Positions 16,173-32,457 of a DNA stretch of 64,000 bases are shown in pieces. This stretch comes from an uncultured Burkholderiales bacterium (lineage in GTDB: Bacteria; Pseudomonadota; Gammaproteobacteria; Burkholderiales; Usitatibacteraceae). Below the pieces are notes generated by a model. The model worked only from the letters and a program-made list of their open reading frames with translations, did not search any database and had not been told where the DNA came from. Within the stretch, counting starts at the first letter, position 1; every line of letters starts with the position of its first letter. The stretch is taken from assembly GCA_964403515.1 (NCBI GenBank), contig CAYOGL010000022.1:1078-65077 (forward strand). Direction: 5' to 3'. The position numbers and the translations under genes are program-made.

Positions 16173-17648
16173 ATGCGCTTCGTCATCGCCCAGATGCAGC
16201 ACGAGACGAACACGTTCTCGCCCGTTCCCACGCCTTGGGAAGCGTTCGGCAACCATGGCCCGTCGATCGGGCGCGAGGCGCTCGAAGCGATCGAGGGCAC
16301 GCGCGTGCCGATGGCGGCGTTCATCGATCTCGCGCGCAGGCAAGGCGCGGAGATCGTGACACCGGTGGCCGCGTGGGCCAATCCGAGCGGACCGGTGGAC
16401 GCCGGGGCCTACGACCGGATCTGCACACTCGTGTGCGACGCAGTGCGCACGGGATGCGACGCGATATTCCTCGACCTGCACGGTGCGATGGTGGTCGATG
16501 GCCGCACCGACGACGGCGAAGGCACGTTGCTCGAGCGCATTCGCGCGATCGCACCGGACACGCCCATCGCCGTGTCGCTCGACCTGCACGCGAACGTGAC
16601 CGGCCGCATGGTGCGCAACTGCAATGTGATCGCGGGGTACAAGACGTATCCGCACGTCGATGGCTACGAGGCGGGCGAGCTTGCGGGCAGCATGCTGCTG
16701 CGCAAGCTGCGAGGCGAGATCGACCCCGTCATGGCATGGGGCAACCGGCCGCTCCTCGCCCACACGCTGCGCCAGAACACGAGTGAAGGCCCGATGCGCG
16801 ACTTCGTGGAAGCGGCCCGCGCGGCGGAGCGTCGCGGCATGCTCGCCGCGAGCGCGTTCGGCGGGTTCCAGCTCGCCGACATCCACGATGCGGGCGTGAG
16901 CGCCATCGTCGTGGCCGATCGCGATCGCGCCGCGGCGCAGGCCGCCTGCGACGCGATTCTCGATGCGGCGTGGCAGCGCAAGGAGGATTTCATCTACCGC
17001 GGCCGCGCCCTCGAAGAAGCGCTCGTCGAGGCGAAGCGCCTCGGAGAGCAAAGCGGCGGGCCGGTGCTGCTGCTCGATCACGCCGACAACTGCGCTTCGG
17101 GCGCGACGCAGGACACGATGCACGTCCTCGAGGCCGCGCTTCGCCTCGGCCTCGGCGGCATCGCGATGGGCCCGGTGCGCGATTCCGAGGCCGTGGCGCG
17201 CATGGTCGAAGCGGGCATCGGCAACCGCGTCACGTTGCCCGTCGGCGGCAAGGCGGACATGCCGGCGATCGGCCGCAAGGGCGAGCCGATGGAGCTCACC
17301 GGCGTCGTGCGCAACATCACCGACGGCGAGTACACGATCACCGGCCCGCAATTCACCGGCATGCGCTGCTACATGGGCAGGACCGCCGTGCTCGATACCG
17401 GGCGCGCGCAGATCGTCGTGACCGAGCGCAACCAGGAGCCGTGGGATCGCGGCGTCTTCGAGAGCGTCGGCATCCGCCCCGAGAAGCAGCGCTACCTGCT
17501 GCTCAAGTCGCGCATGTACTATCGCCCGGTGTTCCTGCCGATCGCCAAGGGCTCGGTGTTGTGCGACGGCGTGGGCGTGGCCTCCTCCGACTGGAAGCAG
17601 TTCGAGTACCGCAAGATCCGCCGCCCGATCTATCCGCTCGACGAATGA
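16173..17648 (+). CDS. M81 (MlrC-like) metallopeptidase
   Basis: QHETNTFSP, LDLHGAMV, SLDLHAN, YKTYPHVD. Confidence 0.92.
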   Translation: MRFVIAQMQHETNTFSPVPTPWEAFGNHGPSIGREALEAIEGTRVPMAAFIDLARRQGAEIVTPVAAWANPSGPVDAGAYDRICTLVCDAVRTGCDAIFLDLHGAMVVDGRTDDGEGTLLERIRAIAPDTPIAVSLDLHANVTGRMVRNCNVIAGYKTYPHVDGYEAGELAGSMLLRKLRGEIDPVMAWGNRPLLAHTLRQNTSEGPMRDFVEAARAAERRGMLAASAFGGFQLADIHDAGVSAIVVADRDRAAAQAACDAILDAAWQRKEDFIYRGRALEEALVEAKRLGEQSGGPVLLLDHADNCASGATQDTMHVLEAALRLGLGGIAMGPVRDSEAVARMVEAGIGNRVTLPVGGKADMPAIGRKGEPMELTGVVRNITDGEYTITGPQFTGMRCYMGRTAVLDTGRAQIVVTERNQEPWDRGVFESVGIRPEKQRYLLLKSRMYYRPVFLPIAKGSVLCDGVGVASSDWKQFEYRKIRRPIYPLDE

Positions 17649-19093
17649 CCATGGCCCAGCACGACCTCGTGATCCGCAATGCGACCGTCGTCGACGGCTC
17701 GGGAGCGCCACGGTACAACGCCGACATCGGCGTGCAGCGCGGCGTGATCTGCGCCATCGGCCGCGACTTGGCGCCGGGTTCGCACGAGATCGACGCCACG
17801 GGCCTCGTCGCAGCGCCGGGTTTCATCGATGCGCACACGCACGACGATCGGCTGATGCTTTCGGCGCCGGAGATGGCGCCCAAGGTGAGCCAGGGCGTCA
17901 CCACGGTCGTCGCGGGCAATTGCGGGATCTCGCTCGCACCCGCGCCGCACGGCATGGCGCGCCCCGTCACGCCACCGCTCGACCTGCTCGACGACGAGGG
18001 CTCGTGGTTCCGGTTTCCGACGTTCGGAGCCTACGTCGAGGCGCTGCACGCGAGCCCTGCCGCCACCAACTGCGCGCTCCTCGTCGGCCACAGCGCGCTT
18101 CGCCTCCAGACCGTTTCCGATGTGAACCGGCCCGCGACGGCCGCGGAACAGGCCGAGATGCGCGCTCTCGCGGATGAGGCGCTCGCGGCGGGCGCGATCG
18201 GCATCTCGACGGGGCTCTGGTACGAGCCCGCGCGCGCGGCGACGACCGAAGAGGTGATCGAGGTATGCCGCCCGCTTACCGCAAGAGGCGCGCTCTACTG
18301 CACCCACATGCGCGACGAGGCCGATGCGGTCACGGCCTCGCTGGAGGAAACCTTTCGCATCGGTCGCGAGCTCGGCGTGCGCGTAGTCATCTCCCACCAC
18401 AAGGTGGCGGGCGTGCGCAACCACGGGCGCTCGCGGGAAACGCTCGCCCTCATCGATCGATGCATGCGGGAACAACCCGTCGGGCTCGACTGCTATCCGT
18501 ACTGCGCATCGTCGACGATCCTCTCGTACGATCGCACGCTGGGTGCCTCGAAGACGCTGGTCACGTGGTCGCGACCGCATCCCGAATTCGCGGGCATGGA
18601 CGTCGAGGCGATCGCCGCGCGCATGGGCATGGGCGTGCGGGAAGCCGTCGAAGCGCTCCTTCCCGCCGGCGCGATCTACTTCTCGATGGACGAAGCGGAC
18701 GTGCAGCGCATCCTCGCCTTCCGCGACACGATGGTCGGCTCCGACGGGTTGCCGCACGACGCGGCCCCGCATCCGCGGCTATGGGGCACGTTTCCGCGCG
18801 TGCTCGGCCACTACGCGCGCGACGTGGGCCTCTTCTCGCTCGAGACCGCGGTGCACAAGATGACCGGCCTCACCGCGAAGACCTTCGGGCTCGAAGGGCG
18901 CGGGCTCATCGGAAAGGGCATGGCAGCGGACATCACGCTTTTCGATGCGCAAACAGTCGGCGATGCAGCGACGTTCGAGAAACCCATCAGCGCTGCGCGC
19001 GGGATCGAGACCGTGATCGTGAACGGGGAGATCGTGTGGCGGGACGGCCGGCCGACGGGCGCTCGGCCCGGGCGGGTGCTGGGCAGGGGTTAA
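17645..19093 (+). CDS. N-acyl-D-amino-acid deacylase (D-aminoacylase)
   Basis: APGFIDAHTHDD, GNCGISLAP, YCTHMRDE, GSDGLPH...HPRLWGTFPRVLG. Confidence 0.92.
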   Translation: MTMAQHDLVIRNATVVDGSGAPRYNADIGVQRGVICAIGRDLAPGSHEIDATGLVAAPGFIDAHTHDDRLMLSAPEMAPKVSQGVTTVVAGNCGISLAPAPHGMARPVTPPLDLLDDEGSWFRFPTFGAYVEALHASPAATNCALLVGHSALRLQTVSDVNRPATAAEQAEMRALADEALAAGAIGISTGLWYEPARAATTEEVIEVCRPLTARGALYCTHMRDEADAVTASLEETFRIGRELGVRVVISHHKVAGVRNHGRSRETLALIDRCMREQPVGLDCYPYCASSTILSYDRTLGASKTLVTWSRPHPEFAGMDVEAIAARMGMGVREAVEALLPAGAIYFSMDEADVQRILAFRDTMVGSDGLPHDAAPHPRLWGTFPRVLGHYARDVGLFSLETAVHKMTGLTAKTFGLEGRGLIGKGMAADITLFDAQTVGDAATFEKPISAARGIETVIVNGEIVWRDGRPTGARPGRVLGRG

Positions 19094-19147: not shown

Positions 19148-19903
19148 TCATTGCCTCGAGGTCCTACGCCTGGTTGCTTGCTTCGTGGATGTTCGGCCCC
19201 TGCGAGCTTCCCCACGCTCGGATCGATGCGGCTTGGAAGAGGATTGCCGCCGCTCGATTTCGGCAAGGCCGGCCACGAGGTTCGTGAGGGAGAGCTCCCG
19301 CTGGGTGTGCTCGGCGGCCGAACCATCGCCCGATGCTATTGCCCTTACCAGCCGGCGCCAGTTGGCGAGCGATTCCTGACGGCGCTCGACGCCCGCCAGC
19401 CCCAATCGCGCATACCGCCCGAAACGCTGAGAGAACTCCTCGATGTAATGGGCGAGCTGCTGATTCTGCGAGAGCCGCGCTATCGTCGCCACCATCGCCG
19501 TGCTCGCCCGCGCATAAAGGATCCCATTGTCGGCAGCCTGCTCGAGCGCCTTCAGTCCCGCCCGCAGCTGCGCCAACTCCTCGGGCGTCAAAAGCTCGGC
19601 GCACCGTCGGGCTGCGAGGCCCAGCAGCGCCGCCCGCATCTCGAACAAGTCCTTGAGCTCCTTGGAAGAAAGCTCCGTCACCCGGGCGCCGTGCTGCGGC
19701 ACGATGTGCACCAAGCCGCGATGTTCGAGGATTCGCAGGCCCTCCCGGACGGTAGCCCGGCTTACACCGAACAACGCCGCCAGCTCGGTCTCCTTCAGCC
19801 GCTCTCCGGGCGCGTAGTGCTCCTCGACGATGCCGGCGCCGATGCGTTCCGCGATCTGCAGGGGCAACGTCGCAGTCAGCTTGGGGTTGAAGCGATAAGC
19901 CAT
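19148..19903 (-). CDS. GntR (FCD-type) transcriptional regulator, divergent from the carboxylase cluster
   Basis: YAPGERLKETELA..FGVSRATVREGLRILEHRGLV; start at MAYRF. Confidence 0.9.
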   Translation of the reverse strand: MAYRFNPKLTATLPLQIAERIGAGIVEEHYAPGERLKETELAALFGVSRATVREGLRILEHRGLVHIVPQHGARVTELSSKELKDLFEMRAALLGLAARRCAELLTPEELAQLRAGLKALEQAADNGILYARASTAMVATIARLSQNQQLAHYIEEFSQRFGRYARLGLAGVERRQESLANWRRLVRAIASGDGSAAEHTQRELSLTNLVAGLAEIERRQSSSKPHRSERGEARRGRTSTKQATRRRTSRQ

Positions 19904-19963
19904 GGTGGAGGTCGGGACGGGCGCGTGACATCGGCTCGTTTGATTGTCATTCCCACTTGCCAC

Positions 19964-19975
19964 AATGTCGACATT
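19964..19975. promoter_or_regulatory. Putative GntR/FadR-type operator
   Basis: Perfect palindrome AATGTCGACATT in the AT-richer divergent intergenic gap. Confidence 0.5.
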
Positions 19976-20084
19976 CCAATAGTATCGTTTCACGAGCTTC
20001 TTGTCGTTCCACGTTTCCATCCCAAGCCCCGGATCGCCATTCCCCGATGGCGAGCCCGCGCGCCGCAGATTGCAAGAGGACCAG

Positions 20085-20585
20085 ATGGGACTCACCCACG
20101 AAGACGTCGAGCGCATCCTGCGGATCATCGACGAATCGGGTTACAACGAAATCAGGATCGAATACGGCGACCTGAAGCTGCATGTGGTGCGCCAGGGAGC
20201 CGCGGCGGCGTCCCCCGCGCCCGATGCGACCGCGAGCGTTCCGGAGCAACGACGTTCATCCGGGCCGACCGCGCCGCAACCGACTCCCGCGGTCGAGACA
20301 AGGCAGGCAGCAAGTGTTTCCGCACTACCTCCGGGCGCCGTGGTGGTGCGCGCGCCGATGCTTGGAACCTTTTACCGGGCGCAGTCGCCAGGTAGCCCGC
20401 CTTTCGTCGAGGCGGGTTCCGAGGTGCGCGCCGACACGACCGTGTGCCTGATCGAGGTGATGAAGCTCTTCAACACACTGAAGGCCGGCGTCGAGGGCCG
20501 GGTGCTGCAGTTCCTGGTGGAAAACGGAAGCATGGTCGAATACGACCAGCCGCTCATCGTGATCGAGCCGAAGGCGAAAGAGTGA
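20085..20585 (+). CDS. Biotin carboxyl carrier protein
   Basis: VRAPMLGTFY, IEVMKLFN biotinylation motif. Confidence 0.93.
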   Translation: MGLTHEDVERILRIIDESGYNEIRIEYGDLKLHVVRQGAAAASPAPDATASVPEQRRSSGPTAPQPTPAVETRQAASVSALPPGAVVVRAPMLGTFYRAQSPGSPPFVEAGSEVRADTTVCLIEVMKLFNTLKAGVEGRVLQFLVENGSMVEYDQPLIVIEPKAKE

Positions 20586-21970
20586 TGTCCCGCATTCGTC
20601 GCGTGTTCGTGGCGAACCGCGGGGAAATCGCCGTACGCATCATCCGGGCCTGCAAGAAGCTCGGCCTCGAGACGGTCATCGGAATATCGACGGCGGACCG
20701 CTCTTCCCTCGGCGCGTCGCTCGCCGATCGAGCCGTGTGCATCGGGCCCGCGCCTGCGGCCGCGAGCTATCTGAACAAGGAGGCGCTCGTGCACGCCGCG
20801 GTCGGCACCGGGTGCGATGCCTTGCACCCCGGATATGGCTTCCTGTCCGAGCGCGCACCGTTCGAACGCCTGTGCAGCGAGAACGGTATTCGCTTCATCG
20901 GCCCTTCCGCGGCCGCCATCGATGCGATGGGCGACAAGCTGAACGCCATTGCAGCCGCGAAGAAACTCGCCGTTCCGACCGTGCCCGGCTCCGACAACGT
21001 CCCCTCGCCGGCCGAGGCGCTCGAGACCGGCGCACGGATCGGCTATCCGTTTCTCTTCAAGGCGCGGGCGGGCGGCGGCGGGCGCGGCATGCGCATCGTG
21101 CGCGAACCGGGAGACGTCGAAGCCGCCTTCGCCGGCGCGCGCGCGGAGGCGGGAGCCGCTTTCGGAAATGCCGAGCTCTACATCGAGAAGTACATCGAAA
21201 GCGCGCGCCACATCGAGATCCAGATCCTCGGAGACCAGCACGGCCATGTGATCCACCTGGGCGAGCGCGACTGCTCGGTGCAGCGCCGGCACCAGAAGCT
21301 GATCGAGGAAGCGCCCTCCGCCGTCATGACGCCGAAGCTGCGCCGCGCGATGGCCGATGCGGCCATGCGCCTCGCCGCGGGCCAGGGCTACGTCGGCGCG
21401 GGCACCGTGGAATTCATCTTCGATGCGAATACCGGGGAGTTCTATTTCCTCGAGATGAATACGCGCGTACAGGTGGAGCATCCCGTCACCGAGATGATCA
21501 CCGGCTTCGACATCGTGGCCGAGCAGATCCGCGTCGCCGAAGGCGACAGGCTGGCCAACGCCGGCCGCGAGCCTGAGTTGCGCGGCCATGCCATCGAGTG
21601 CCGCATCAACGCCGAGATTCCGGAGAACGACTTCATGCCCTCCCCCGGGCGGATCGGCGAATGGGAACCGCCCGAGGGCGACGGCATCCGCGTCGATACG
21701 CACTGCTACCCCGGCTACTTCGTGCCGCCGTTCTACGACTCGATGATCGCCAAGCTCATCGTCCACGACGCCGACCGCCGCAGCGCGCTGCGCAAGATGG
21801 ACGCCGCGCTCGCCTCGTTCCGCGCGACCGGAATCTCCACGACGATCGCCTTCCATCGGGCGGTCATCGCGCATCGGGATTTCCAGCTGGGCAGTGTCAC
21901 CACGAGCTGGCTCGAGCGCTCCTTCATGCCCGTGTACATGGCTCCCACGTCTTCCGAGGCTCCCGCATGA
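20585..21970 (+). CDS. Biotin carboxylase
   Basis: VANRGEIAVRI, HPGYGFLSE, GGGGRGM, EMNTRVQVEHPVTE, YDSMIAKLI. Confidence 0.95.
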   Translation: MSRIRRVFVANRGEIAVRIIRACKKLGLETVIGISTADRSSLGASLADRAVCIGPAPAAASYLNKEALVHAAVGTGCDALHPGYGFLSERAPFERLCSENGIRFIGPSAAAIDAMGDKLNAIAAAKKLAVPTVPGSDNVPSPAEALETGARIGYPFLFKARAGGGGRGMRIVREPGDVEAAFAGARAEAGAAFGNAELYIEKYIESARHIEIQILGDQHGHVIHLGERDCSVQRRHQKLIEEAPSAVMTPKLRRAMADAAMRLAAGQGYVGAGTVEFIFDANTGEFYFLEMNTRVQVEHPVTEMITGFDIVAEQIRVAEGDRLANAGREPELRGHAIECRINAEIPENDFMPSPGRIGEWEPPEGDGIRVDTHCYPGYFVPPFYDSMIAKLIVHDADRRSALRKMDAALASFRATGISTTIAFHRAVIAHRDFQLGSVTTSWLERSFMPVYMAPTSSEAPA

Positions 21971-23433
21971 AAACGATCGAGATCGTCGACACGACGCTGC
22001 GCGACGCGCACCAATGCCTCTGGGCGACTCGCATGACGACGGCGATGATGCTGCCCGTGGCCGAGCGCATGGACCGCATCGGCTTCCACGCGCTCGACTT
22101 CATGGGCATGATCCAGTTCGACGTGTGCGTGCGCTACCTCAAGGAGGATCCGTGGGAGCGCATCCGCCAGGTGCGTCGGCGCGTCACACGCACGCCGCTC
22201 AAGGCCGCGATCCGCAGCCGCAGTCTCGTCGGCTTCGACATGCTCGCGGAGGACGTCAACCTGCTCTGGGTCGAGCGCCTCGTCGCAAACGGCATCCGCC
22301 AAATCGTTGCGTTCGACGCGCTCGCGGATCTCGACAACATCGTTCCGCAGCTCCGGCATGCGAAGTCGCTCGGGGTGCGCCCGATCGGCGCGCTCGTGTT
22401 CTGCGAGAGCCCGGTGCATCCCGATTCGCTGTACGCGGCCAAGGCGAAGGAGCTCGTCGACCGCGCCGGCGTCGAGGCGATCATGATCAAGGATTCGGGC
22501 GGGCTGCTCACGCCGGATCGGATCCGTACCCTGGTGCCCGCGATGAAGGCCGCCATCGGCCCGGACATTCCCCTTCAGCTGCATAGCCACTGCATCACCG
22601 GGCTCGCGCCGCTCGTCTATCTCGAGGGCGTGAAGCACGGCGTCGACCAGGTCGACTGCGCGATCGATCCGCTCGCGAACGGCCCCGCGCAGCCGGCGAC
22701 GCAGACGATCGCCGCGAACCTGCGCGCCATGGGCTATGGAGTGGATGTCGATGACGTGCTGATCAGCGAGGTCGGCTCGCACTTCCGCGAAGTCGCGCGC
22801 CAGGAAGGCAAGCCCCTGGGCGTCCCGATGGCATACGACGCCTTCCACTACGAGCACCAGGTGCCCGGCGGCATGCTCACTAACCTCCACTTCCAACTGG
22901 AGCAAGCGGGCCTGCAGGACAAATACGAGCAGGTGCTCGCCGAGATCGCGCAGATCCGGCGCGAGCTGGGCTGGCCGATCATGGTCACGCCCTTCGCGCA
23001 GCTCGTGGCCACCCAGGCGGTGTTCAACGTCGTCCAGGACGAGCGCTACAAGGTCGTTCCCGACGAGGTGCGCAAGTACGCCCTCGGCTACTACGGGAAG
23101 CTCCTGGCGCCCGTCGAGCCGGACATCCTCGATCGCATCATCGCGAACAGCTCGTCGAGCATTCCGCTGCATCCCGAGCCGCCGGCGCCGGCGGTCGAGG
23201 CGCTGCGTCGCAAATATCCGGGCGCCACTGACGACGAGCGCCTCTTGCGCTTCATGTTCGCCGGCTCGCAGGTCGACGACATGCTCGCCGCCGGACCGAT
23301 GAAGACGGAATACGCGTTCCAGCAGCCCCTCGCCGAGCTGCTCCAGGGGCTGGCGAAACGCCCGAAGCTCGCGCGCGTGAGCATCCGGAAACACGACTTC
23401 ACCCTCGAGCTTTCGCATGACGGTGCTCGATAG
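21967..23433 (+). CDS. Pyruvate carboxylase/oxaloacetate decarboxylase-type carboxyltransferase, no biotinyl domain
   Basis: DTTLRDAHQ, IKDSGG, LHSH, QVPGGM, MVTP..Q.V.TQA. Confidence 0.9.
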   Translation: MKTIEIVDTTLRDAHQCLWATRMTTAMMLPVAERMDRIGFHALDFMGMIQFDVCVRYLKEDPWERIRQVRRRVTRTPLKAAIRSRSLVGFDMLAEDVNLLWVERLVANGIRQIVAFDALADLDNIVPQLRHAKSLGVRPIGALVFCESPVHPDSLYAAKAKELVDRAGVEAIMIKDSGGLLTPDRIRTLVPAMKAAIGPDIPLQLHSHCITGLAPLVYLEGVKHGVDQVDCAIDPLANGPAQPATQTIAANLRAMGYGVDVDDVLISEVGSHFREVARQEGKPLGVPMAYDAFHYEHQVPGGMLTNLHFQLEQAGLQDKYEQVLAEIAQIRRELGWPIMVTPFAQLVATQAVFNVVQDERYKVVPDEVRKYALGYYGKLLAPVEPDILDRIIANSSSSIPLHPEPPAPAVEALRRKYPGATDDERLLRFMFAGSQVDDMLAAGPMKTEYAFQQPLAELLQGLAKRPKLARVSIRKHDFTLELSHDGAR

Positions 23434-25573
23434 CATGCAACCGGCGGCGCGCAGCCGCGCGCCCGATCTCGACCGCCTGTTCGACCCGCGTGGCATCGCG
23501 GTGGTCGGCGCCTCTTCCGACCTCGGGCGCATCGGCGGCCAGCCGATCTTCGCGCTCTCGGAATTCGGATACACCGGCGGCATCTACCCCATCAATCCGA
23601 AGTATCCGGAGATCAAGGGACTCGCCTGCTATCCCGGCATCCAGGCGGTGCCGGATCCGTGCGACGTCGCGCTCATCGCCGTGCCCGCGAAGGCGGTGCC
23701 CGGTGCCATCATCGATTGCGGCAAGCGGGGCATCCCGTTCGCCGTCGTGCTGAGCGCCGGATTTCGCGAGGTGCGTGGCGGGGCCGAGATGCAGCGCCAG
23801 CTCGACGCGGCGATCGCGGAATCGGGCGTGCGCGTGGTCGGCCCGAATTGCCAGGGCCTGCTCAACATCCAGAAGGACGTCTATTGCGGCTTCGGGGCGC
23901 CGTTCCAGTACCGACACCCCAACGCGGGCAGCGTCGCGCTCGTCACGCAGAGCGGGGGCTTCGGTTACGCCGTGCTCGGATTGGCCGAGGCCGCGGGCCT
24001 TGCGTTCAACTGCGTCGTGTCGACGGGCAACGAGACGGACATCGATACGCTCGATCTCATCGACTACCTGCTCGATCGCGACAACGTCGAGGTGGTCGCG
24101 ACGTACATGGAAGGCGTGCGGGACGGCCGTCGCCTGCTCGCCCTCGGCGAGAAGGCGCGCCGCCTCGGCAAGCCGATTGCCGTCTGGAAGGTGGGCAACT
24201 CGCGGACCGGACAGGCGGCCGCCGCCTCGCACACCGCGAACCTTTCCGCGGGTTACGAGCTTTACCGCGCGGCCTTCGACCATCCCGGGTTCGTGCTGGT
24301 GCGCGACGTCGATGACCTTGTCGACGTCGCGAAGGGCTTCCTGCATCGGCGCCAGCCGAAGGGCAACCGGGTCGGAGTGATCTCGATTTCCGGAGGGGCC
24401 GGCGTGCTCCTCGCCGATCGGTGCGAGGAACTCGGCCTGGCTCTGCCGTCGCTCTCCGAAAGCTCGTCCGCGGAGCTGCGCTCGTTCATGCCCGAGTTCG
24501 CGAGCATCGCGAATCCCATCGACGTGACGGCGCAGATCTTCAACGAGCTGCCCATGTTCCGACGCGTGCTCGATACGGTGCTCGCCGATCCGCAGATCGA
24601 CCAGGTCATCGTGTACAACGCGTCGATCCAGGGCGCGACCGCGCAGCGCCTGGCCGATGAGCTGGCTGACATCTCGAAACGCACCGACAAGCCGATGCTG
24701 ATCGGCTCGAGCGCACCGCCGGGCAAAGCGAGCGCTGCCCTCGACACGCTCGCGAAGGCGAACCTGCCGTGCTATCCGACGCCCGGGCGTGCGGCCGCGG
24801 CGGCCGCCGCGCTGAATGTCTTCTGGAGCCGCACGGTGCGCGCGGCCGGACAGGCTCCCATGCGCCCTATCGCGAAAGCAGCGATCCCGACGGGTGTCGG
24901 CCCACTGGGCGAGCACGACTCGAAGCAGTGCCTGCTCGCCTACGGCATTCCGGTCGTGCGCGAGGTGCTGCTCGGCGTCGACGAGGCGCTCGCGTTGAAT
25001 GCGCCACCGCTGCCCTTCCCGCTCGTCGCGAAGATCGATTCGCCCGATCTTCCGCACAAGTCGGAGGCGGGAGCCGTCCGCGTGAACATCACCTCGATCG
25101 AGGAGCTGCGCAGCGCCGTGCGTGAGATGCTCGCTTCGGCGCAGGCCTATCGTCCGGGAGCGCGCATCGCGGCGATCTCGCTGCAGGAGATGGCCAAAGG
25201 CATGGAGGTGCTCGCGGGCGCCGTGAACGATCCCTACTTCGGGCCGGTGATCGCGTTCGGCCTCGGTGGCGTGTTCACGGAGGTCCTGCACGAGGTCGTG
25301 CACGAGTTCGCGCCGTTCGACGAGCAGGCGGCGCGCGAGATGATCCGCCGCAGCCGCGGTGCCGCCCTCTTCGAGGGTGTTCGCGGAATGCCGGCGCTCG
25401 ACCTCGATGCAACCGCCGCCTTGCTCGCGCGACTTTCCTGGCTCGCCGCCGATCACGCCGATCGCATTGCGGAGATCGACGTGAACCCCGTGTTCGTGCG
25501 GCCGAAGGGCCAAGGCGTCGTGGCTGCGGACGCACTCGTGGTGATGCGCGACCCGAACGAGGGCAAACGATGA
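23417..25573 (+). CDS. ADP-forming acyl-CoA synthetase (acetate-CoA ligase family, fused alpha-beta)
   Basis: IAVVGAS, VVGPNCQG, AAASHTA phospho-His, HKSEAGAV ATP-grasp. Confidence 0.92.
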   Translation: MTVLDSMQPAARSRAPDLDRLFDPRGIAVVGASSDLGRIGGQPIFALSEFGYTGGIYPINPKYPEIKGLACYPGIQAVPDPCDVALIAVPAKAVPGAIIDCGKRGIPFAVVLSAGFREVRGGAEMQRQLDAAIAESGVRVVGPNCQGLLNIQKDVYCGFGAPFQYRHPNAGSVALVTQSGGFGYAVLGLAEAAGLAFNCVVSTGNETDIDTLDLIDYLLDRDNVEVVATYMEGVRDGRRLLALGEKARRLGKPIAVWKVGNSRTGQAAAASHTANLSAGYELYRAAFDHPGFVLVRDVDDLVDVAKGFLHRRQPKGNRVGVISISGGAGVLLADRCEELGLALPSLSESSSAELRSFMPEFASIANPIDVTAQIFNELPMFRRVLDTVLADPQIDQVIVYNASIQGATAQRLADELADISKRTDKPMLIGSSAPPGKASAALDTLAKANLPCYPTPGRAAAAAAALNVFWSRTVRAAGQAPMRPIAKAAIPTGVGPLGEHDSKQCLLAYGIPVVREVLLGVDEALALNAPPLPFPLVAKIDSPDLPHKSEAGAVRVNITSIEELRSAVREMLASAQAYRPGARIAAISLQEMAKGMEVLAGAVNDPYFGPVIAFGLGGVFTEVLHEVVHEFAPFDEQAAREMIRRSRGAALFEGVRGMPALDLDATAALLARLSWLAADHADRIAEIDVNPVFVRPKGQGVVAADALVVMRDPNEGKR

Positions 25574-25953
25574 GCGAGAAGCTGTCTCCCCACGCTTCTT
25601 ATGTCGAGCATTGCCGCCGCGGGGAGCTCGCCTACCAGGTGCGAACGTCCGACGGGAAGGCGGTGTTCCCGCCGCGGGTCATGGCACCCGGTACGGGCGG
25701 TGCGCTCGATTGGCGAATCAGCACCGGCCTCGGCACCGTGTACGCGACGACGACGCTTCACCGCAAAGGAGAAAGCCCGTACAACGTCGCGCTGGTCGAT
25801 CTCGACGAAGGCATCCGCATGATGAGCCGCGTCGAGGAGGCCGCGCCTGACGCGGTCGCCGTCGGCATGCGCGTGAAGGTGCGCTTCCGCGCCGGTGAAG
25901 GCGACGAGCCGCCCTATCCCGTCTTCGTTCCGGCGAGCGCCGCAGGCGATTGA
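25570..25953 (+). CDS. DUF35-type OB-fold protein with degenerate zinc ribbon
   Basis: GTVYATT, PYNVALVDLDEGIRMMSRV, VGMRVKV; Zn cysteines absent. Confidence 0.88.
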   Translation: MSEKLSPHASYVEHCRRGELAYQVRTSDGKAVFPPRVMAPGTGGALDWRISTGLGTVYATTTLHRKGESPYNVALVDLDEGIRMMSRVEEAAPDAVAVGMRVKVRFRAGEGDEPPYPVFVPASAAGD

Positions 25954-25958
25954 GACCG

Positions 25959-27116
25959 ATGCCGACCCGCGGAAGCGCAGCCATCATCGGAGTCGCCGAA
26001 TCGGACCTCGGCCAGGTCGCCGCCGGCATGACGCCGGCGGATCTCATGGCCCAGGCGGTCGAGGCGGCGCTCGCCGATTGCGGGCTGCGGCTGGACGACG
26101 TGGACGCCGTCTTCGCGGCCGCCACGCAGATGAACATGCCGGTGCTGAATCTGTGCGAGTACCTCGGCATCCAGCCGCGCTACATGGACGGCACGCACAT
26201 CGGGGGCGCATCGTTCCTTTCGCACGTCGCGCATGCGCAGGCTGCGCTCGAGGCGGGCGCCTGCAAGGTCGCGGTGATCGCGTATGGCAGCACGCAGCGG
26301 ACCGCCGGACGTTCGAACGCGGCGCCGCAGGAGATCATCCCGTACGAGGCGCCCTATCGCCCGATGCTGCCGGTCACCGCGTATGCGCTCGCTGCCTCGC
26401 GCCACATGGCGCAGTTCGGGACGACGCGCGAGCAGCTGGCGAGCGTCGCCGTCGCGGCTCGCGAATGGGCGCTCATGAACCCGAAGGCCTGGGAGAAGAA
26501 GCCGCTTACCGTGGAGCAGGTCCTCGCTGCTCCGATGATCGCCTCCCCGCTCACGGTGCGCGATTGCTGTCTCGTCACCGACGGCGGCGGAGCCATCGTG
26601 ATGACGGCCGCGAAGGATGCGAAGCGCGGGAAGAAGGCGCCCGCCTACGTGCTCGGCGTGGGAGAGGCTGCGACCCATCGGCACATCACGTCGATGCCCG
26701 ACCTCACGGTCACCGCGGCTCGCGTCTCCGGCGAGCGCGCGTTCGCCATGTCGGGTCTCGCTCCGAAGGACGTCGACGTGGCCGAGCTCTACGATGCGTT
26801 CACGATCAACACCCTCCTCTTCCTCGAAGACCTGGGCTTCTGCGCGAAGGGTGAAGGTGGCCGCTTCGTCGAGGGCGGGCGCATTGCTCCCGGCGGGGAG
26901 CTGCCGGTGAACACGAACGGCGGCGGGCTCTCGTACTGCCACCCGGGGATGTACGGCATCTTCCTGCTCATCGAGGCCGTGCGGCAAATTCGCGGCGAAT
27001 GCGGCGAGCGCAACGTGCGCGGCTGCGAGGTGGCGCTCGCGCACGGCAACGGCGGCGTGCTCTCGAGCCAGGCGACGGTGATATTGGGAGCGCCGGGCAC
27101 CGTCTCCGCGCACTAA
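25959..27116 (+). CDS. Thiolase-fold (SCP2/Ltp2-like) protein
   Basis: AAIIGVAE, CCLVTDGGGAIV, ELYDAF, NTNGGGLSYCHPG. Confidence 0.9.
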   Translation: MPTRGSAAIIGVAESDLGQVAAGMTPADLMAQAVEAALADCGLRLDDVDAVFAAATQMNMPVLNLCEYLGIQPRYMDGTHIGGASFLSHVAHAQAALEAGACKVAVIAYGSTQRTAGRSNAAPQEIIPYEAPYRPMLPVTAYALAASRHMAQFGTTREQLASVAVAAREWALMNPKAWEKKPLTVEQVLAAPMIASPLTVRDCCLVTDGGGAIVMTAAKDAKRGKKAPAYVLGVGEAATHRHITSMPDLTVTAARVSGERAFAMSGLAPKDVDVAELYDAFTINTLLFLEDLGFCAKGEGGRFVEGGRIAPGGELPVNTNGGGLSYCHPGMYGIFLLIEAVRQIRGECGERNVRGCEVALAHGNGGVLSSQATVILGAPGTVSAH

Positions 27117-27137
27117 AGCGCCGCAAAAGGAGAAACC

Positions 27138-27716
27138 ATGGAGTCCAGCGTCCAAGCCAAGATCAACCGCCACCCGGCGGTGCGGGCACTGCATGCCGCG
27201 CGCGTGCGCCTGTACCAGGGCCTCGAGGCGGTCATCTTCGTCCTGGTGCTGATGATCCTCGGGTTCGTCTTCACGCAGGTCTTCACGCGCTACGTCCTGC
27301 ACACGCCGGTGAACTGGCTCGAGGAGGCGGCGCGCATGACGCTGGTGTGGCTGGTGATGCTCGGGGCGGCCGTCGCCGCCGAGCGGCGCGAGCACTACGT
27401 GATCAACGTCATCACGCTGCAGCTGCCGCGGCAGATCGCCCTCGTCCTCCTGATCATGACCAACCTGCTCGCCGTCGTCTTCCTGGCCATTCTCACGGTC
27501 AAGGGCTTCGAGTATTTCCGCAGCGGCATGGCCAGCTATTACGTCTCGCTCAACGTGCCCCGCGGCTACATCTACATCGCCGTGCCGATCGGGTCGATCC
27601 TCATGGCCTTCAGCCTCGTGACGCAATCGATCGAGGCCTGGTTCGCTCCCGAGACGGTCGAAAGCGCCAAGCCGGGCGGAGCGAATCCCGACGTCCCCAC
27701 CTTCTCGCACGAATAG
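27138..27716 (+). CDS. TRAP transporter small permease (DctQ)
   Basis: QVFTRYV, WLEEAAR, four TM segments. Confidence 0.9.
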   Translation: MESSVQAKINRHPAVRALHAARVRLYQGLEAVIFVLVLMILGFVFTQVFTRYVLHTPVNWLEEAARMTLVWLVMLGAAVAAERREHYVINVITLQLPRQIALVLLIMTNLLAVVFLAILTVKGFEYFRSGMASYYVSLNVPRGYIYIAVPIGSILMAFSLVTQSIEAWFAPETVESAKPGGANPDVPTFSHE

Positions 27717-27730
27717 ACGCGGAGACGGCC

Positions 27731-29011
27731 ATGACTTGGATCCTCATCCTGATGCTCGTCCTGTTCTTCGCCGCCATGCCGATCGTGTTCGCGGTGGGGC
27801 TGGTCAGCACGATCTACGCCGCCTACGTCGCCGACGTTCCGCTCTCGATCGTTCCCCAGCAGCTCATTTCCGGCATCGACAGCTTCGTGCTGCTCGCGAT
27901 CCCGCTCTTCCTGCTCACCGGCGGCATCATGGGCGAGGCCGGCATCACGCAGCGGCTGCTGCGCTTCAGCGAGGCGCTGGTCGGCTGGATGCGTGGCGGC
28001 CTCGGGCAGGTGAACGTCCTCACCAACGTCTTCATGGCCGGGATCTCCGGCTCGGGGCTGGCCGACGCGGCCGCCACCGGCAGCGCGCTCATCCCTCTCA
28101 TGGAGAAGCGCGGTTACTCGACTGCCTTCGCCGCGGCCGTTACCGGAGCCGCCTCGTGCATCGGCCCGATCATCCCGCCCAGCATCATCATGGTGGTCAT
28201 CGGCGGCCTCACCTCGGCCTCGGTCGGACGCATGTTCCTCGGCGGCATCGTTCCCGGGCTCATCCTCGGCCTCGCCTTCGGCGTCTGCGTCTACGTCACC
28301 TCGCGCAAGCGCGGCTATCCGAAGGGCAGCATGGTGGGCTGGCGGGAGCTCGCCGCGAGCTTCTGGTCGGCGCTTCCCGCGCTCGGTCTCCCGGTGATCA
28401 TCATCGTCGGCATCCTGAGCGGTGCTTTCACTCCCACGGAAGCCGCGGCCGTGGCATGCGTCTACACGATCATCTTCGGCCTCATCTACCGCGAGCTCAC
28501 GTGGCGCGCATTCTATCGAGGCGTGATCGCCGTGGGGACGGCCACCGGCACGATCATGTTCATCGTCGGAATCTCCGCCATATTCGGCTGGATCCTGGTC
28601 TCGGAGCAGGTCGGCGAAAACCTCGCGGCATGGCTGCTTCACCTCACGCACAATCCCACGTACATGATGTTCCTCATCACGACGGCCCTGCTGCTGCTCG
28701 GCTGCCTGGTCGACGTGATGGCATTGCTCATCCTCACGGTGCCGATCATGATGCCGCTCGTGCAGACGCTGGGCATCGATACGGTGCACTTCGGCGTGAT
28801 CGCGACGATCGCGCTCACGACCGGGCTGATCACGCCGCCATTCGGGCTGAGCATGTTCCTGATGTGCAGCATCAGCGGCTGCACGATCGAGGAGTTCGCG
28901 CGCGAGGTGTGGCCGTACGTGATCGCGATCATCGTCGGCCTCGTTCTCTTCATCGTGTTTCCGCAGCTCGTGGTGTGGGTTCCCAACACCATCATGGGTC
29001 AAGCGAAATGA
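27731..29011 (+). CDS. TRAP transporter large permease (DctM)
   Basis: LLAIPLF, GISGS, GPIIPPSI, FTPTEAA, TPPFG. Confidence 0.94.
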   Translation: MTWILILMLVLFFAAMPIVFAVGLVSTIYAAYVADVPLSIVPQQLISGIDSFVLLAIPLFLLTGGIMGEAGITQRLLRFSEALVGWMRGGLGQVNVLTNVFMAGISGSGLADAAATGSALIPLMEKRGYSTAFAAAVTGAASCIGPIIPPSIIMVVIGGLTSASVGRMFLGGIVPGLILGLAFGVCVYVTSRKRGYPKGSMVGWRELAASFWSALPALGLPVIIIVGILSGAFTPTEAAAVACVYTIIFGLIYRELTWRAFYRGVIAVGTATGTIMFIVGISAIFGWILVSEQVGENLAAWLLHLTHNPTYMMFLITTALLLLGCLVDVMALLILTVPIMMPLVQTLGIDTVHFGVIATIALTTGLITPPFGLSMFLMCSISGCTIEEFAREVWPYVIAIIVGLVLFIVFPQLVVWVPNTIMGQAK

Positions 29012-29096
29012 GCGCGGCGCTTCCGACGTGCCCGGACGCCGCCGCCAACGCACAGGCACAGACATTCCCGGGCCATCGATAAACGAGGAGGATCAG

Positions 29097-30110
29097 ATGT
29101 CGAGAGCATTGAAGTGGACTGCAACGCTCGTTCCGATCGCGGCATTGCTGGCGGCACCCCTCGCGCGGGCCGCCGACGCGATCCCCGAGCTGAAGATGCG
29201 CATCGCCGATTCCTACACCGCGGACATGCCATCGGGCATCGCGTTCCAGCACTTCGCCAAGCGCATCTCCGAGCTTTCCGGCGGCAAGATGACGGCGCGC
29301 ATCTATCCGGGCGGGACGCTCTATTCCGAGGACAAGGGCATCCAGGGCGTGCTCGACGGGACGGTCGACATGGCGCTCGCAAGCGCGGCCAACCACAGCC
29401 CGTTCACCAAGGTGTGGCGCGTGATCGAGGCGCCCTACCTCTTCGACAGCAACCAGCAGTTCCGCGACGTCATCATCCATGGAGACGTCGGCAAGGAGCT
29501 GCGCAAGCGCGCGGAGAAGGACCGACTCGTCCCGCTCATGATCTTCGAGACGGGCGGCATGCGCATCGTCGGCACGAACAAGCCGATCCATACGCCGGAG
29601 GATCTCGCGAACGCCAAGATCCGGGTGCCGCAATCGCCGGTGCCGCTCGCGTTCTGGAAGGCGGAGGGCGCGAATCCCACGGTCGTGCCGTGGGGCGAGA
29701 CCTACCTCGCGCTCGCCTCGAAGACGGTGGACGGGCTGGACGCGAGCTGGCTCTCCTGGCCGCTCGCGAAGCTGTGGGAGGTGACGAAGTACATCACGCC
29801 CGTGGGCTACTCATCGACCTCCTCGGTCGTCGACGTGTCGACCAAGTGGTGGGCCGAGCGCACGCCCAAGCAGAAGGAGATCATCCTGCAGGCGGCGAAG
29901 GAGGCCGAGGACGTCGCCATCCAGGAGGAGGACAAGTGGGAAAAGAAGGCCCGCGAGATGTGCATCAAGAACGGCATGACGATGATCGATCCCACGGCGC
30001 AGCAGATGGACGAGTGGCGCAAGAAGGGCCGTTCCACGTGGGCTACGCTCCCGGACGTCTCGCAGGCGGACCTCAAGCGGATCGCGTCGCTCAACCACAT
30101 CAAGATGTAG
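29097..30110 (+). CDS. TRAP substrate-binding protein (DctP)
   Basis: Signal peptide, [25 protein letters not shown]. Confidence 0.92.
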
Positions 30111-30138
30111 CGCGCGAGGCGATGGGCAAGCCACTGGC

Positions 30139-30879
30139 ATGACCAAGATCGCAGTGGTGACGGGGGCGGCCTCCGGGCTCGGCTTCGCCATCGCCGCGCG
30201 CCTGGCGCGCGACGGGTGTGCGCTGGTCATGGCCGACCTCGACGCGGCCGCTGCGGAAGCGCGCGCCTCGGAGCTTAGTGCGCGAGGTTTCGAGGCGATC
30301 GCCAACCGGCTGGACGTCACGCGGCCCGCGGATGTGTCGAAGGTGGTCACAACGGTGACAGACCGCTTCGGTCGCATCGATCTCCTCGTGAACAACGCGG
30401 GCGTGCTCGGCCCCTGCGTTTCCCTGGTCGAGGTGACCGACCGCGACATCGCGCAGGTGCTCGACGTGAACGTGAAGGGTGTCGTCCACTGCCTGCGGGC
30501 CGTGCTGCCGGTGATGCTGCGGCAGAAATCCGGCGCGATCGTGAACATCGCATCGACCGCCGCGAAGGAAGGTCCTGCCCTCATGTCGCTCTATGCGGCG
30601 AGCAAGGGCGCGGTCGTCGCGCTCACGAAGTCGGCCGCGCGGGAGACGGTGTCTTCTGGCATCCGCGTGAACTGCGTGACACCCACGCTCATCGGCGAGA
30701 CCGGAATGGAGAAGGCGATGCCCGACCACTTCCGCGAGAACTCGATCCGCCAGATCCCGATGGGCCGGCCGGGCAAGCCGGACGAAGTCGCTGCGGTCGT
30801 CGCATTTCTCCTCTCCGACGACGCGAGCTTCGTCACCGGCCAGTGCTACGACGTGAGCGGCGGCCGATCAACCTGGTAG
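30139..30879 (+). CDS. SDR oxidoreductase
   Basis: [17 protein letters not shown]. Confidence 0.94.
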
Positions 30880-30890
30880 CCCATGCGAGC

Positions 30891-31691
30891 ATGAATTCCG
30901 ATCCGCAAGCCGATGTTCTCCCCTCTCCCGAAACCGTGCGCAGCCAGTTCGATCTGGGCGGCAGCATCGCGCTCGTCACCGGCGCCGGCAGCGGCCTGGG
31001 ACGCGCGATCGCATGGGGTTTGGCATGCCATGGGGCGGATCTCGTCATCGCCGATCTCGACGCCAATGCCGCCTCGCGGGTAGCCGACCAGATAAGGGCC
31101 CTTGGACGTCGCGCACTCGCGATCGCCGTCGACGTGACCGACGAGGGGCAGGTCGAGGACATGGTTTCGCGCTCCCTGCGTGAGTACGGACGCATCGATA
31201 TCAGCGTGAACAATGCGGGCAACAATTGCCGCAAGCCGATCCTGGAGATGTCGGCGCAGGAGTTCGACCGAGTGGTGGACGTCCATCTGCGCGGAACGTT
31301 TCTGTGCGCACGCGCCGTCGGCCGCAGCATGGTGGAGCGGGGCAAGGGAAAGATGATCAACCTCGCCTCGATCATGGGACATGTCGGCGCTCCCGCGATC
31401 GGGCCGTATGCGGCGGCTAAAGGTGGAATCCTGCAGCTCACCAAGGTGCTCGCCCTGGAATGGGCGCCTTATAACGTACAGGTCAACGCGCTCTCACCGG
31501 CGCACTTCGACACGGCTCTCACTCGCCAGCATAGCCCCGAGATGCGAGCCGCGATAATGGAAGAAAACCCGCAGCGCCGATTCGCCTCGCCTGCAGAACT
31601 TATCGGCGCGGCCGTGCTGTTGGCCTCTCCCGCATCGAGTTTCATCACGGGTACATCCCTCCTGGTCGACGGCGGTTGGACCGCGCGCTGA
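30891..31691 (+). CDS. SDR oxidoreductase (gluconate 5-dehydrogenase-like)
   Basis: TGAGSGLG, NNAG, YAAAK. Confidence 0.93.
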   Translation: MNSDPQADVLPSPETVRSQFDLGGSIALVTGAGSGLGRAIAWGLACHGADLVIADLDANAASRVADQIRALGRRALAIAVDVTDEGQVEDMVSRSLREYGRIDISVNNAGNNCRKPILEMSAQEFDRVVDVHLRGTFLCARAVGRSMVERGKGKMINLASIMGHVGAPAIGPYAAAKGGILQLTKVLALEWAPYNVQVNALSPAHFDTALTRQHSPEMRAAIMEENPQRRFASPAELIGAAVLLASPASSFITGTSLLVDGGWTAR

Positions 31692-31713
31692 GCGCTGACC
31701 GGATCGGCGACGC

Positions 31714-32457
31714 ATGGCAAACGGTATCGAAGGCAAGGTCGTCGTCATCACAGGCGCCAGCAGCGGGCTCGGAGAGGCGGCAGCTCGCCTGCTCTCGAGA
31801 GAAGGCGCGATCGTGGTCCTCGGGGCCCGGCGCGTGGATCGTCTGCGCAGCATCGTGGCTCAGCTCTGCGCGAACGATCGCAAGGCGCTCGCGTTCGAAA
31901 CCGACGTCACCCGATTCGAGCAGGTCAAGCGCCTCGTCGACGGGGCCGTGGACGCTTTCGGCCGCATCGACGTCATGGTCAACAACGCGGGACTCATGGC
32001 GCACTCGCTACTCGAGCGCGTGAAGATCGCCGATTGGGACCGCATGATCGACGTGAATCTTCGCGGCGTGCTGCACGGGATCGCCGCGGCGCTGCCGCAG
32101 ATGCAACGGCAGCGCTCGGGCCACATCATCAACGTCTCGTCGATCTCCGGCCACAAGGTGCGTCCGACCACTGCGGTCTACGCGGCGACGAAGCACGGCG
32201 TTCGAGCGATCACCGAAGGGCTGCGGCAGGAAGTCAAACCGTACAACATCCGGACGACGGTGATCTCTCCGGGCGCCGTCGACAGCGAGTTGCCCCAAGG
32301 GCTCACGGAACCCGATATCGCCGACAAGATGCGCAAGCTCTACGAGATCGCCTTGCCCGCCGAATCGTTTGCACGCATGGTCGCGTTCGCGATCAGCGAG
32401 CCCGAAGACGTCGACGTGAACGAGATCGTATTCCGGCCGACGCGGCAGGAGCTGTAG
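31714..32457 (+). CDS. SDR oxidoreductase (YdfG/clavaldehyde dehydrogenase-like)
   Basis: [25 protein letters not shown]-terminus. Confidence 0.93.

Follow-up and report, generated by a model that had tools for sequence, protein, structure and literature searches.

Gene content and organization of the operon

The window analysed here is the whole stretch of 64,000 nucleotides from an uncultured Burkholderiales bacterium (contig CAYOGL010000022.1, positions 1,078 to 65,077), and its region 19148–32457 is a real, self-contained operon of 11–13 genes containing a three-subunit biotin-dependent carboxylase. The biotin carboxyl carrier protein (BCCP), the biotin carboxylase (BC) and the carboxyltransferase (CT) are encoded separately, followed by an ADP-forming acyl-CoA synthetase (ACS), a DUF35 protein, a thiolase-fold protein, a TRAP transporter and short-chain dehydrogenases/reductases (SDRs), with a GntR-family regulator gene divergent from them. 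Gene identities were obtained by Pfam and NCBIfam scans, and coordinates are window positions (Table 1). These scans recovered all genes named in a preliminary description of this DNA, and SDR3, which starts on the same strand after a 22-nt gap from SDR2, is an addition to that list. The G+C content is 66–68% across the region, as in the flanking DNA, and the real genes are overlapped by many spurious open reading frames (ORFs). Below, G000 is the genome of the window (4.98 Mb), G018 is the genome of a sister species, and L-numbers are related loci or contigs.

The first six genes of the operon, from BCCP to the thiolase-like gene, all overlap or abut. BCCP and BC share 1 nt (TGATG), BC and CT share 4 nt (ATGA), CT and ACS overlap by 17 nt or abut, and 4-nt overlaps join ACS with DUF35 and DUF35 with the thiolase-like gene; these overlaps of 1–17 nt at the checked junctions agree with the translational coupling described before. 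The ATG of BCCP is preceded, 5 nt apart, by AAGAGGA. For DctP, SDR1, SDR2 and the ligase, relatives with solved structures give generic hints only (isethionate-binding and unnamed DctP-family proteins, gluconate dehydrogenases, hydroxy-acid CoA ligases) and point to no substrate. For example, ACS matches in PDB an ADP-forming 3-hydroxypropionate-CoA ligase (E 7e-103) and a 4-hydroxybutyrate-CoA ligase (E 1e-99).

Outside the operon, an Amidohydro_3-family metallohydrolase gene (16970–19093, + strand; NF006560, 168 bits, below the cut-off) is convergent with the GntR gene and ends 55 nt from its stop codon. The annotated ORF start of this gene is probably too far upstream, and it is not conserved beside the operon in G018.

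Table 1. Features of the operon and of related clusters (window positions unless a locus is given)
Feature	Position	Strand	Evidence or remark
GntR/FCD-family transcription regulator, divergent from operon	19148-19903	-	PF00392 + PF07729
Sigma-70-like promoter, TTGCCA-17-TAGTAT, spacer holding palindrome	19957-19985	+	Consensus match only
Perfect 12-bp palindrome	19964-19975		Between GntR and BCCP
AccB-type BCCP, 166 aa	20085-20585	+	TIGR00531 128.6 bits (cut-off 115.2), PF00364, EVMKL biotinylation motif
BC, ATP-grasp, 461 aa	20585-21970	+	PF00289, PF02786, PF02785; NF006367 637 bits (cut-off 597)
CT, PycB/OadA/5S type, without biotinyl domain, 488 aa	21967-23433	+	PF00682 (HMGL-like) + PF02436 (PYC_OADA)
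Fused alpha-beta ADP(NDP)-forming ACS, 718 aa	23417-25573, start perhaps 23435	+	PF13380, PF13607, PF19045, PF13549
DUF35 OB-fold protein, without zinc ribbon, 127 aa	25570-25953	+	PF01796 only; single Cys
SCP2-thiolase-fold protein without both catalytic cysteines; probable acyl-CoA C-C lyase (Sal/Ltp2-like)	25950-27116	+	PF22691, NF004811
TRAP small permease DctQ	27138-27716	+	PF04290
TRAP large permease DctM	about 27731-29011	+	PF06808; TIGR00786 394 bits
TRAP solute-binding protein DctP	about 29097-30110	+	PF03480, NF037995; nearest solved relative 4p47, E 3e-40
SDR1, FabG/glucose-1-dehydrogenase-like	30139-30879	+	PF13561, PF00106; NF005559 235 bits (cut-off 215)
SDR2, most like gluconate/hexonate dehydrogenases	about 30891-31691	+	Pfam/NCBIfam; PDB 4ibo E 2.5e-55
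SDR3	31714-32457	+	PF00106; outside block conserved in G018
Low-GC clusters	L166:201-14232; L168:3392-17517		Metagenome contigs

Conservation of the block

G018 keeps the BCCP-to-SDR2 block colinear with the window at 74–76% nucleotide identity, and the match ends at window position 31693, before SDR3. The block of G018 (L094:8987-18999 and L095:1-7309, on G018:C16) is flanked by an ACC-type CT gene on one side and a second BC gene on the other, which are adjacent to each other on contig C39 of the window's genome (G000:C39:5380-13187), in an uninterrupted operon with its own GntR gene and a family III CoA-transferase gene. Since the flanking genes are intact on C39, the block moves as a unit and the ACC-type CT is not part of it; the latter was considered as a pathway member and rejected because it forms its own intact operon there. 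Two CT types and two BCs are thus combined in the operon of G018. The gene order of the block is also that of metagenome contig L118, which at ~97% identity to G018 is not an independent case.

The core set recurs independently in a lineage of 34% G+C, with a CoA-transferase replacing the ligase. Contigs L166 and L168 carry GntR(UTRA), CoA-transferase subunits A and B, BCCP, CT (51–52% identity), BC, a cysteine-less thiolase-like protein (48–50%), DUF35, an SDR, two AcnX (aconitase X) subunits, DctPQM and a beta-hydroxyacid dehydrogenase, in a gene order that differs from the window's. AcnX is also found near ligase/thiolase-like modules in L097 and L106. In L133, BC, CT (66%), DctQMP (50–64%) and an SDR stand together without a ligase, a lyase or any other gene between them, and the DctP ortholog (56–57%) directly follows CT. 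This arrangement indicates that transporter, SDR and carboxylase are tied together.

The GntR regulator and its predicted operator

A perfect 12-bp palindrome, AATGTCGACATT, lies between the divergent GntR and BCCP genes and, with its core TGTCGACA, is a probable GntR operator. The regulator has winged helix-turn-helix and FCD domains, and an inverted repeat with a TGT-n-ACA core in the promoter fits FadR/FCD-type GntR repressors. One copy of AATGTCGACATT exists in the window versus 0.06 expected by chance, and the 4.98-Mb genome contains exactly two copies, each adjoining one of two paralogous GntR genes. The second copy is located on contig C4 beside a 72%-identical GntR paralog (G000:C4:118377-119045), at the same promoter position and in a similar layout (TTGCCT, palindrome, TGGTAT). 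This paralog is divergent from a single gene for a thiamine diphosphate enzyme that is Xsc (sulfoacetaldehyde acetyltransferase)/acetolactate-synthase-like (435 bits, cut-off 620; locus G000:C4:118377-120812, L117:8360-10812), and this gene may be co-regulated with the window operon.

On metagenome contig L141, the palindrome is again found between a divergent GntR gene (70% identity) and BCCP, in a locus whose CT is 93% identical to the window's; further copies are present in L155 and L195, with GntR orthologs of 58–60% identity, and in L164. The divergent regulator with a palindromic operator, as first described, is therefore upheld insofar as the palindrome is present, rare in the genome and kept in L141, while its role as operator is a prediction from sequence.

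Family and active site of the carboxyltransferase

The window CT carries RDAHQ, HSH and IKDSGG, in agreement with the motifs described before, and among solved structures the closest are OadA of V. cholerae (2nx9, E 2.8e-87) and PycB of M. flagellatus (5ks8, E 1.3e-85). The full catalytic set of the pyruvate carboxylase (PC) type is kept (R12, D13, H15, Q16, R83, K175, H206, H208 and T305), covering the metal, carbamyl-lysine, substrate-arginine and catalytic-threonine sites. The substrate arginine and the catalytic threonine presumably correspond to R621 and T882 of RePC. No PF00364 biotinyl domain is found in the CT chain. The substrate-lining RGQNLLGY, common to OadA, PycB and 5S as aligned, reads RSRSLVGF in the window CT; the consensus of its family is RSKSLxGF, which puts an extra basic residue two places past the substrate arginine. 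The preliminary description took KDS instead of KDM as a hallmark, which did not hold up, as family members have S, A or P following KD.

The CT has many relatives: over 7,800 proteins match it in the database at E <= 0.001, and in a one-genome-per-species scan 552 stretches were confirmed, which are spread over Beta-, Alpha- and Gammaproteobacteria, Actinomycetota and other groups. Of the 120 best relatives listed, most have 483–496 residues, and at their source they are named "oxaloacetate decarboxylase alpha" or "pyruvate carboxylase subunit B". In 12 aligned family sequences (65–86% identical to the window CT), the PC-type catalytic residues are kept in all 12; as the family is also rich in paralogs, these conserved residues do not specify pyruvate as the substrate.

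In a 90-sequence tree, obtained by a quick search with two outgroup sequences only, all CTs lacking the BCCP domain fall on one branch apart from OadA and the CT domain of PC (SH-aLRT 100, length 2.3). This branch contains the window CT together with L091, L092, L101 and L102, which are plasmid clusters with a kinase, a three-subunit carboxylase and a phosphatase as in the described Acv and Hpe systems; these Acv/Hpe-like rows were assigned by gene content and not by identity to HpeB itself. At superfamily level, the window CT is thereby placed in the three-subunit ketone-carboxylase family. Within it, the CTs of the window and G018 form their own deep branch; identity between the window CT and the Acv/Hpe-like CTs is 37–41%, and the CT of L091 has Glu and Gly where the window CT has K175 and T305.

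Accessory distribution of the operon

PEP (phosphoenolpyruvate) carboxylase is encoded in the window's genome, and a full-length PC was not found there by tblastn. Only two PYC_OADA genes exist in this genome, both of the split type. The other one belongs to a BCCP + CT pair (G000:C7:96823-98806; L096:6677-10968) with 46% and 41% identity to the window's proteins; no BC gene adjoins it, NMT1-type ABC transporter genes lie downstream, and its BC is probably borrowed from elsewhere. The operon occurs in one of 26 other genomes of the genus (G018). The unpublished genomes G001 and G229 are counted in the genome tallies, but no conclusion depends on either of them in particular. In contrast to a housekeeping enzyme, up to 5 CT paralogs of 62–72% identity exist per genome (G091, from one other family of the same order). 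In metagenome contig L140 (Ga0082335_1004778), four CT paralogs with 61–63% identity to the window's lie within 9 kb, together with two BCCP genes and a TctC gene, and tandem CT pairs are found in L007, L025 and L187-L191. The CT family expands by local duplication.

A housekeeping PC was therefore rejected, considering the PEP carboxylase, the accessory nature of the operon and the relatives with multiple paralogs, in line with the earlier view that this carboxylase is not a housekeeping one. The result named beforehand as speaking against the proposal, namely an ordinary PC with neighbours not conserved together, was not obtained: the CT is set apart from OadA and PC in the tree, and the neighbours are kept together, as the whole block in G018 and as the core in the low-GC L166 and L168.

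Gene neighbourhoods of the carboxyltransferase family

Neighbours in 80 genome loci were clustered by ORF calling and BLAST, and the commonest clusters were annotated. Among the 80 best loci, about 50 have BCCP and BC next to CT. At least one gene for cleavage of a beta-keto acid or CoA ester (BKACE, PcaIJ/PcaF-type, ADP-forming ligase or DUF35/thiolase-like) lies within 8 kb in 33 of the 67 loci that have at least 4 kb on both flanks, while only ~7% of random 17.5-kb windows carry such genes, a rough baseline from the window's genome alone. This enrichment is the main reason why the carboxylation product is thought to be a beta-keto acid.

BKACE was found in 9 of the first 80 loci. Other recurrent neighbours are IclR regulators, TctC receptors, NMT1-type ABC transporters, GGT-like proteins, and MmgE/PrpD with an ACC-type CT. 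ACS orthologs (55–63% identity) are located between BCCP and BC in L008 and L027. In one clade, PcaI/PcaJ-family CoA-transferase subunits and a thiolase are the partners. For example, PcaI/PcaJ-family transferase genes adjoin the carboxylase in L053, and in L040 (Chromohalobacter) a thiolase with 688 bits against the PcaF equivalog (cut-off 597) follows two genes weakly matching the PcaI/PcaJ CoA-transferase family (~46 bits, below the cut-offs), with an AtoE-like transporter upstream. As a lead, these PcaIJF-type neighbours suggest 3-oxoadipate as the product and levulinate as the substrate for that clade. In L093 (plasmid pNK84 of Caballeronia sp. NK8, NZ_AP024328.1), a CT of 60% identity stands with AccB and AccC beside genes for a carbonic anhydrase, an acetoacetate-decarboxylase-family protein, a DUF485 protein and a BioA-like aminotransferase. 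In the literature, nothing was found on a levulinate carboxylase or on a biotin-dependent ketone carboxylase associated with BKACE or DUF35, and what was found on this carboxylase family concerns aryl ketones throughout.

A distinct and strongly conserved cluster type contains MmgE/PrpD, BCCP and a CT with RDAQQ, often with TRAP, Amidohydro_2 and PRISE-like reductase genes, and also GntR(UTRA), BC, an ACC-type CT and an ACS-like ligase, so that one BC and one BCCP are shared by two CT types. It was found in L061 (Bordetella bronchiseptica, NZ_CP124610.1), L032, L038 and L039, and in metagenome contigs including L148, L155-L159, L162-L164, L167, L182 and L184.

The thiolase-fold protein and its DUF35 partner

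The best solved match of the thiolase-like protein is the uncharacterised 4u4e (392 bits), followed by CtSal (9myr), TcLtp2 (6ok1) and BbsB (7pxp), and its scores against the Sal and Ltp2 structures reach only 152–189 bits. Gly86 occupies the position of the nucleophilic Cys of the true thiolase in L091 and of the PcaF-type thiolase, and the C-terminus reads HGNGG rather than CxG, so the C-terminal catalytic Cys is missing as well. The thiolase His is kept (His331, in SYCHPG). Tyr281 of the YDAF motif aligns with Tyr302 of Sal and Tyr294 of Ltp2 (residue roles in PMC12329534), where true SCP2-type thiolases and BbsB have His. The DUF35 protein has one Cys and no PF12172 match, and so lacks a Cys4 or Cys3His zinc finger. 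Orthologous ligase-DUF35-thiolase-like modules in the order are accompanied by crotonase (enoyl-CoA hydratase, ECH) or MaoC hydratases, acyl-CoA dehydrogenases, AMP-forming ligases and AcnX.

With both catalytic cysteines missing, ordinary thiolysis was rejected. The cysteine-less active site and the Sal/Ltp2-type Tyr motif indicate that cleavage is probably retro-aldol, and the protein is more likely an acyl-CoA C-C lyase, a retro-aldolase acting on 3-hydroxyacyl-CoA, than a thiolase. The thiolase-fold protein named in the preliminary description is confirmed; a thiolytic final cleavage is improbable with Gly at the nucleophile position. The chemistry of this protein may be new.

Proposed pathway and alternative explanations

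We propose that the operon encodes an accessory catabolic route, repressed by GntR, for a hydroxy or oxo carboxylic acid that the cell imports, a view that in our estimation has about an even chance of being right. As the preliminary description had it, the order of import, oxidation, carboxylation, CoA activation and C-C cleavage fits the gene set best; we hold this order with moderate confidence, and favour it because every conserved gene has a role in it and no missing enzyme is needed. In step 1, the TRAP system would import the acid, and in step 2 an SDR would oxidise a secondary alcohol to the ketone. In step 3, BCCP, BC and CT would use ATP and bicarbonate to carboxylate the carbon beside the carbonyl, giving a beta-keto dicarboxylate; the classes of these proteins and of the transporter are plain from their families, whereas substrate and ligand are assumed. 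In step 4, the ADP-forming ligase would make the CoA thioester of the carboxylation product, as suggested by the gene order here and in L008 and L027. In step 5, the FabG-like SDR would most likely reduce the 3-oxo group, and the cysteine-less thiolase-fold protein with DUF35 would then cut the C-C bond by a Sal/Ltp2-type retro-aldol reaction, releasing acetyl-CoA or another short acyl-CoA. The substrate is probably aliphatic and carboxylated, and its own carboxylate would serve as the anionic handle; in this, and in having neither kinase nor phosphatase, the pathway would differ from the aryl-ketone ones. Sister clades with PcaIJ/PcaF-type genes suggest levulinate-type keto acids (4-oxopentanoate to 3-oxoadipate), as an example only.

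Several points weigh against this proposal. The exact module is rare, being found only in G000 and G018 among ~340 genomes of the genus and order, and in the 300 sampled genomes of the order ACS orthologs (22 genomes) are never adjacent to close CT homologs. The characterised family members are of the aryl-ketone type only, with none from the kinase-free clade. The CT keeps every residue that binds or activates pyruvate in PC (R12, Q16, R83 and T305), and pyruvate or another 2-oxo acid may yet be its substrate. There is no hydratase in the operon, and the source of the 3-hydroxyacyl-CoA rests on the assumed SDR step. In the thiolase-like protein, the catalytic acid Cys304 of Sal is replaced by Ala283, and the region of Tyr344 of Ltp2 reads SYCHPG, in an ambiguous part of the alignment where the thiolase His is retained, so its chemistry may be neither classical thiolysis nor aldol cleavage of the Sal type. 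The roughness of the 7% baseline and the quick tree search also count here.

Among the alternatives, the same enzymes could work in reversed order: the ligase activates an imported 3-hydroxy acid (e.g. one with a tertiary alcohol or a beta-branch), the aldolase cuts it into acetyl-CoA and an otherwise inert ketone, and the biotin enzyme carboxylates the freed ketone to a beta-keto acid, which is finished by housekeeping enzymes. The aldolase features of the thiolase-like protein agree with this, as do its orthologs beside ECH, MaoC and AcnX, enzymes making 3-hydroxy acids or 3-hydroxyacyl-CoAs, and the AcnX dehydratase/hydratase and ScoAB/PcaIJ-type transferases of L166 and L168 would suit a beta-keto acid as end product. 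However, the conserved SDRs would be left idle, L133 joins TRAP, SDR and carboxylase without ligase or lyase, and the ligase gene between BCCP and BC in L008 and L027 suggests action on the carboxylase product. We regard the reversed order as rather unlikely.

A split pyruvate (or plain 2-oxo acid) carboxylase is a less probable explanation still. It would supply oxaloacetate beside a lyase yielding pyruvate and acetyl-CoA, or oxaloacetate would be converted by SDR, ligase and lyase through malate and malyl-CoA to glyoxylate and acetyl-CoA, and the pair of ADP-forming ligase and retro-aldol lyase does mirror malate thiokinase and malyl-CoA lyase. The conserved catalytic and pyruvate-binding residues of PC, the best solved matches (OadA and PycB) and the lack of a canonical PC in the genome would be accounted for. 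On the other hand, PEP carboxylase is encoded in the genome, a search of 26 other genomes of the genus did not find the operon in 25 of them, the same residues are kept in all 12 aligned relatives from a family with up to 5 paralogs per genome and thus do not specify pyruvate, the RGQNxxGY motif is changed, neighbours of the BKACE and PcaIJF types would make no sense if oxaloacetate were the product, and the CT groups with ketone carboxylases.

It seems more improbable again that independent modules with different substrates (carboxylase; ligase, DUF35 and thiolase-like protein; TRAP and SDRs) were recently juxtaposed. The BCCP-BC-CT and ACS-DUF35-thiolase-like modules are indeed each far commoner alone than together, but the first six genes are joined by stop/start overlaps, G018 has kept the entire block (74–76% nucleotide identity) at a different chromosomal place, and the 34%-GC lineage assembled the same functional set independently, with a different gene order and a CoA-transferase for the ligase.

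The last candidate, an aryl methyl ketone pathway of the Hpe/Acv/Xcc type (for hydroxyacetophenone or acetovanillone), shares the three-subunit family and the BCCP-BC-CT order, and DUF35 and thiolase follow CT in the kinase-linked Rhodococcus cluster L091, but it was rejected as having hardly any likelihood because kinase and phosphatase are missing (no PEP-utilising, Tm-1-like, HAD or Tyr phosphatase or other phosphatase gene in 19148–32457 by Pfam and NCBIfam scans), CT identity is only 37–41%, the window CT keeps K175 and T305 where L091 has Glu and Gly, the TRAP transporter points to a carboxylate substrate, and the thiolase of L091 is a true Cys thiolase, which the window lacks.

Comparison with known systems

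Three-subunit aryl methyl ketone carboxylases were described in 2022 for Rhodococcus rhodochrous GD02 (HpeCBA; PMC9618137) and Sphingobium sp. SYK-6 (AcvCDE; bioRxiv 10.1101/2022.04.28.489975), and XccBCA of Aromatoleum aromaticum EbN1 is a further example. HpeCBA was shown to carboxylate 4-phospho-acetophenone and 4-phospho-acetovanillone, and a CoA synthetase and a cleavage enzyme were proposed to act next (PMC9618137). The CT of the Acv system is PycB-like, and its gene order is BCCP-BC-CT (SLG_06520-06500; bioRxiv 10.1101/2022.04.28.489975). In view of these systems, two statements of the preliminary description have to be corrected. The route is not an orphan one, since ketone carboxylation followed by CoA activation and cleavage is already known from XccBCA, HpeCBA and AcvCDE, and the rule that PC-type carboxyltransferases act on 2-oxo acids is contradicted by the carboxylation of 4-phospho-acetophenone. 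The design is thus known from Xcc, Hpe and Acv, while its kinase-free, probably non-aromatic version and the substrate thereof have not been described before.

Tentatively, and with somewhat less confidence than in the pathway order, we suggest that the kinase-free CT clade (hundreds of species) and this operon represent an undescribed degradation of aliphatic oxo acids, in which a PC-type active site carboxylates a keto acid other than pyruvate (e.g. levulinate to 3-oxoadipate), followed by a new cysteine-less, zinc-free thiolase-fold/DUF35 lyase. If true, biotin-dependent ketone carboxylation would extend from lignin-derived aryl ketones to general organic-acid catabolism. In databases, these genes bear the labels pyruvate carboxylase subunit B, oxaloacetate decarboxylase alpha, AccB/AccC and acetyl-CoA acetyltransferase, and in this operon probably none of the four is right as to function. 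Knowing what a kinase-free, TRAP-linked member carboxylates would add a second class of substrates to biotin-dependent ketone carboxylation; it would also establish a catabolic step that consumes CO2, of use in pathway prediction and engineering, and assign a reaction to the widespread cysteine-less thiolase-like/DUF35 pair.

Compared with Acv, Hpe and Xcc, the window operon has the same separate AccB-type BCCP, BC and BCCP-less PycB-type CT in BCCP-BC-CT order, and a beta-keto acid is made, CoA-activated and cleaved there, as proposed here. However, phenol kinase and phosphatase are absent from the window operon, the ligase is ADP-forming in place of an AMP-forming acetoacetyl-CoA-synthetase-like one, the lyase is a cysteine-less thiolase-like protein, and TRAP and SDRs suggest that the hydroxy or oxo acid is aliphatic; against L091, the full PC catalytic set stands in place of K175E and T305G. 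With PycB (5ks8), OadA (2nx9) and transcarboxylase 5S (1rqb), the window CT shares the HMGL-like TIM barrel with PYC_OADA, RDAHQ, the carbamylatable Lys in KD(x), HxH, the R621-equivalent Arg and the catalytic Thr. It differs from them in having no fused biotinyl domain, in the changes from RGQNxxGY to RSRSxxGF and from KDM to KDS, and in belonging to an accessory, multi-paralog family with catabolic neighbours.

The thiolase-like protein resembles the steroid side-chain aldolases Sal-Shy(DUF35) (9myr) and Ltp2-ChsH2(DUF35) (6ok1) in its SCP2-thiolase fold, Gly at the nucleophile position, Tyr in YDxF/Y and a DUF35 partner; unlike them, it has Ala for Cys304 of Sal, retains the thiolase His (CHPG), has a DUF35 partner without zinc finger, and is accompanied by neither a hydratase partner nor steroid genes. 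The benzoylsuccinyl-CoA thiolase BbsAB (7pxp) and the pair of L091 are likewise DUF35 and SCP2-type thiolase-fold pairs, cleaving bulky or charged 3-oxoacyl-CoA, and that of L091 also directly follows a three-subunit carboxylase; both have an HDAF motif, and L091 the nucleophilic Cys, where the window protein has YDAF and Gly. Finally, the proposed sequence of secondary alcohol, ketone, ATP-dependent carboxylation, beta-keto acid, CoA ester and cleavage is that of the acetone and acetophenone carboxylase pathways (AcxABC, ApcABCDE; discussed in PMC9618137), whose carboxylases are non-homologous, biotin-independent enzymes of the hydantoinase type.

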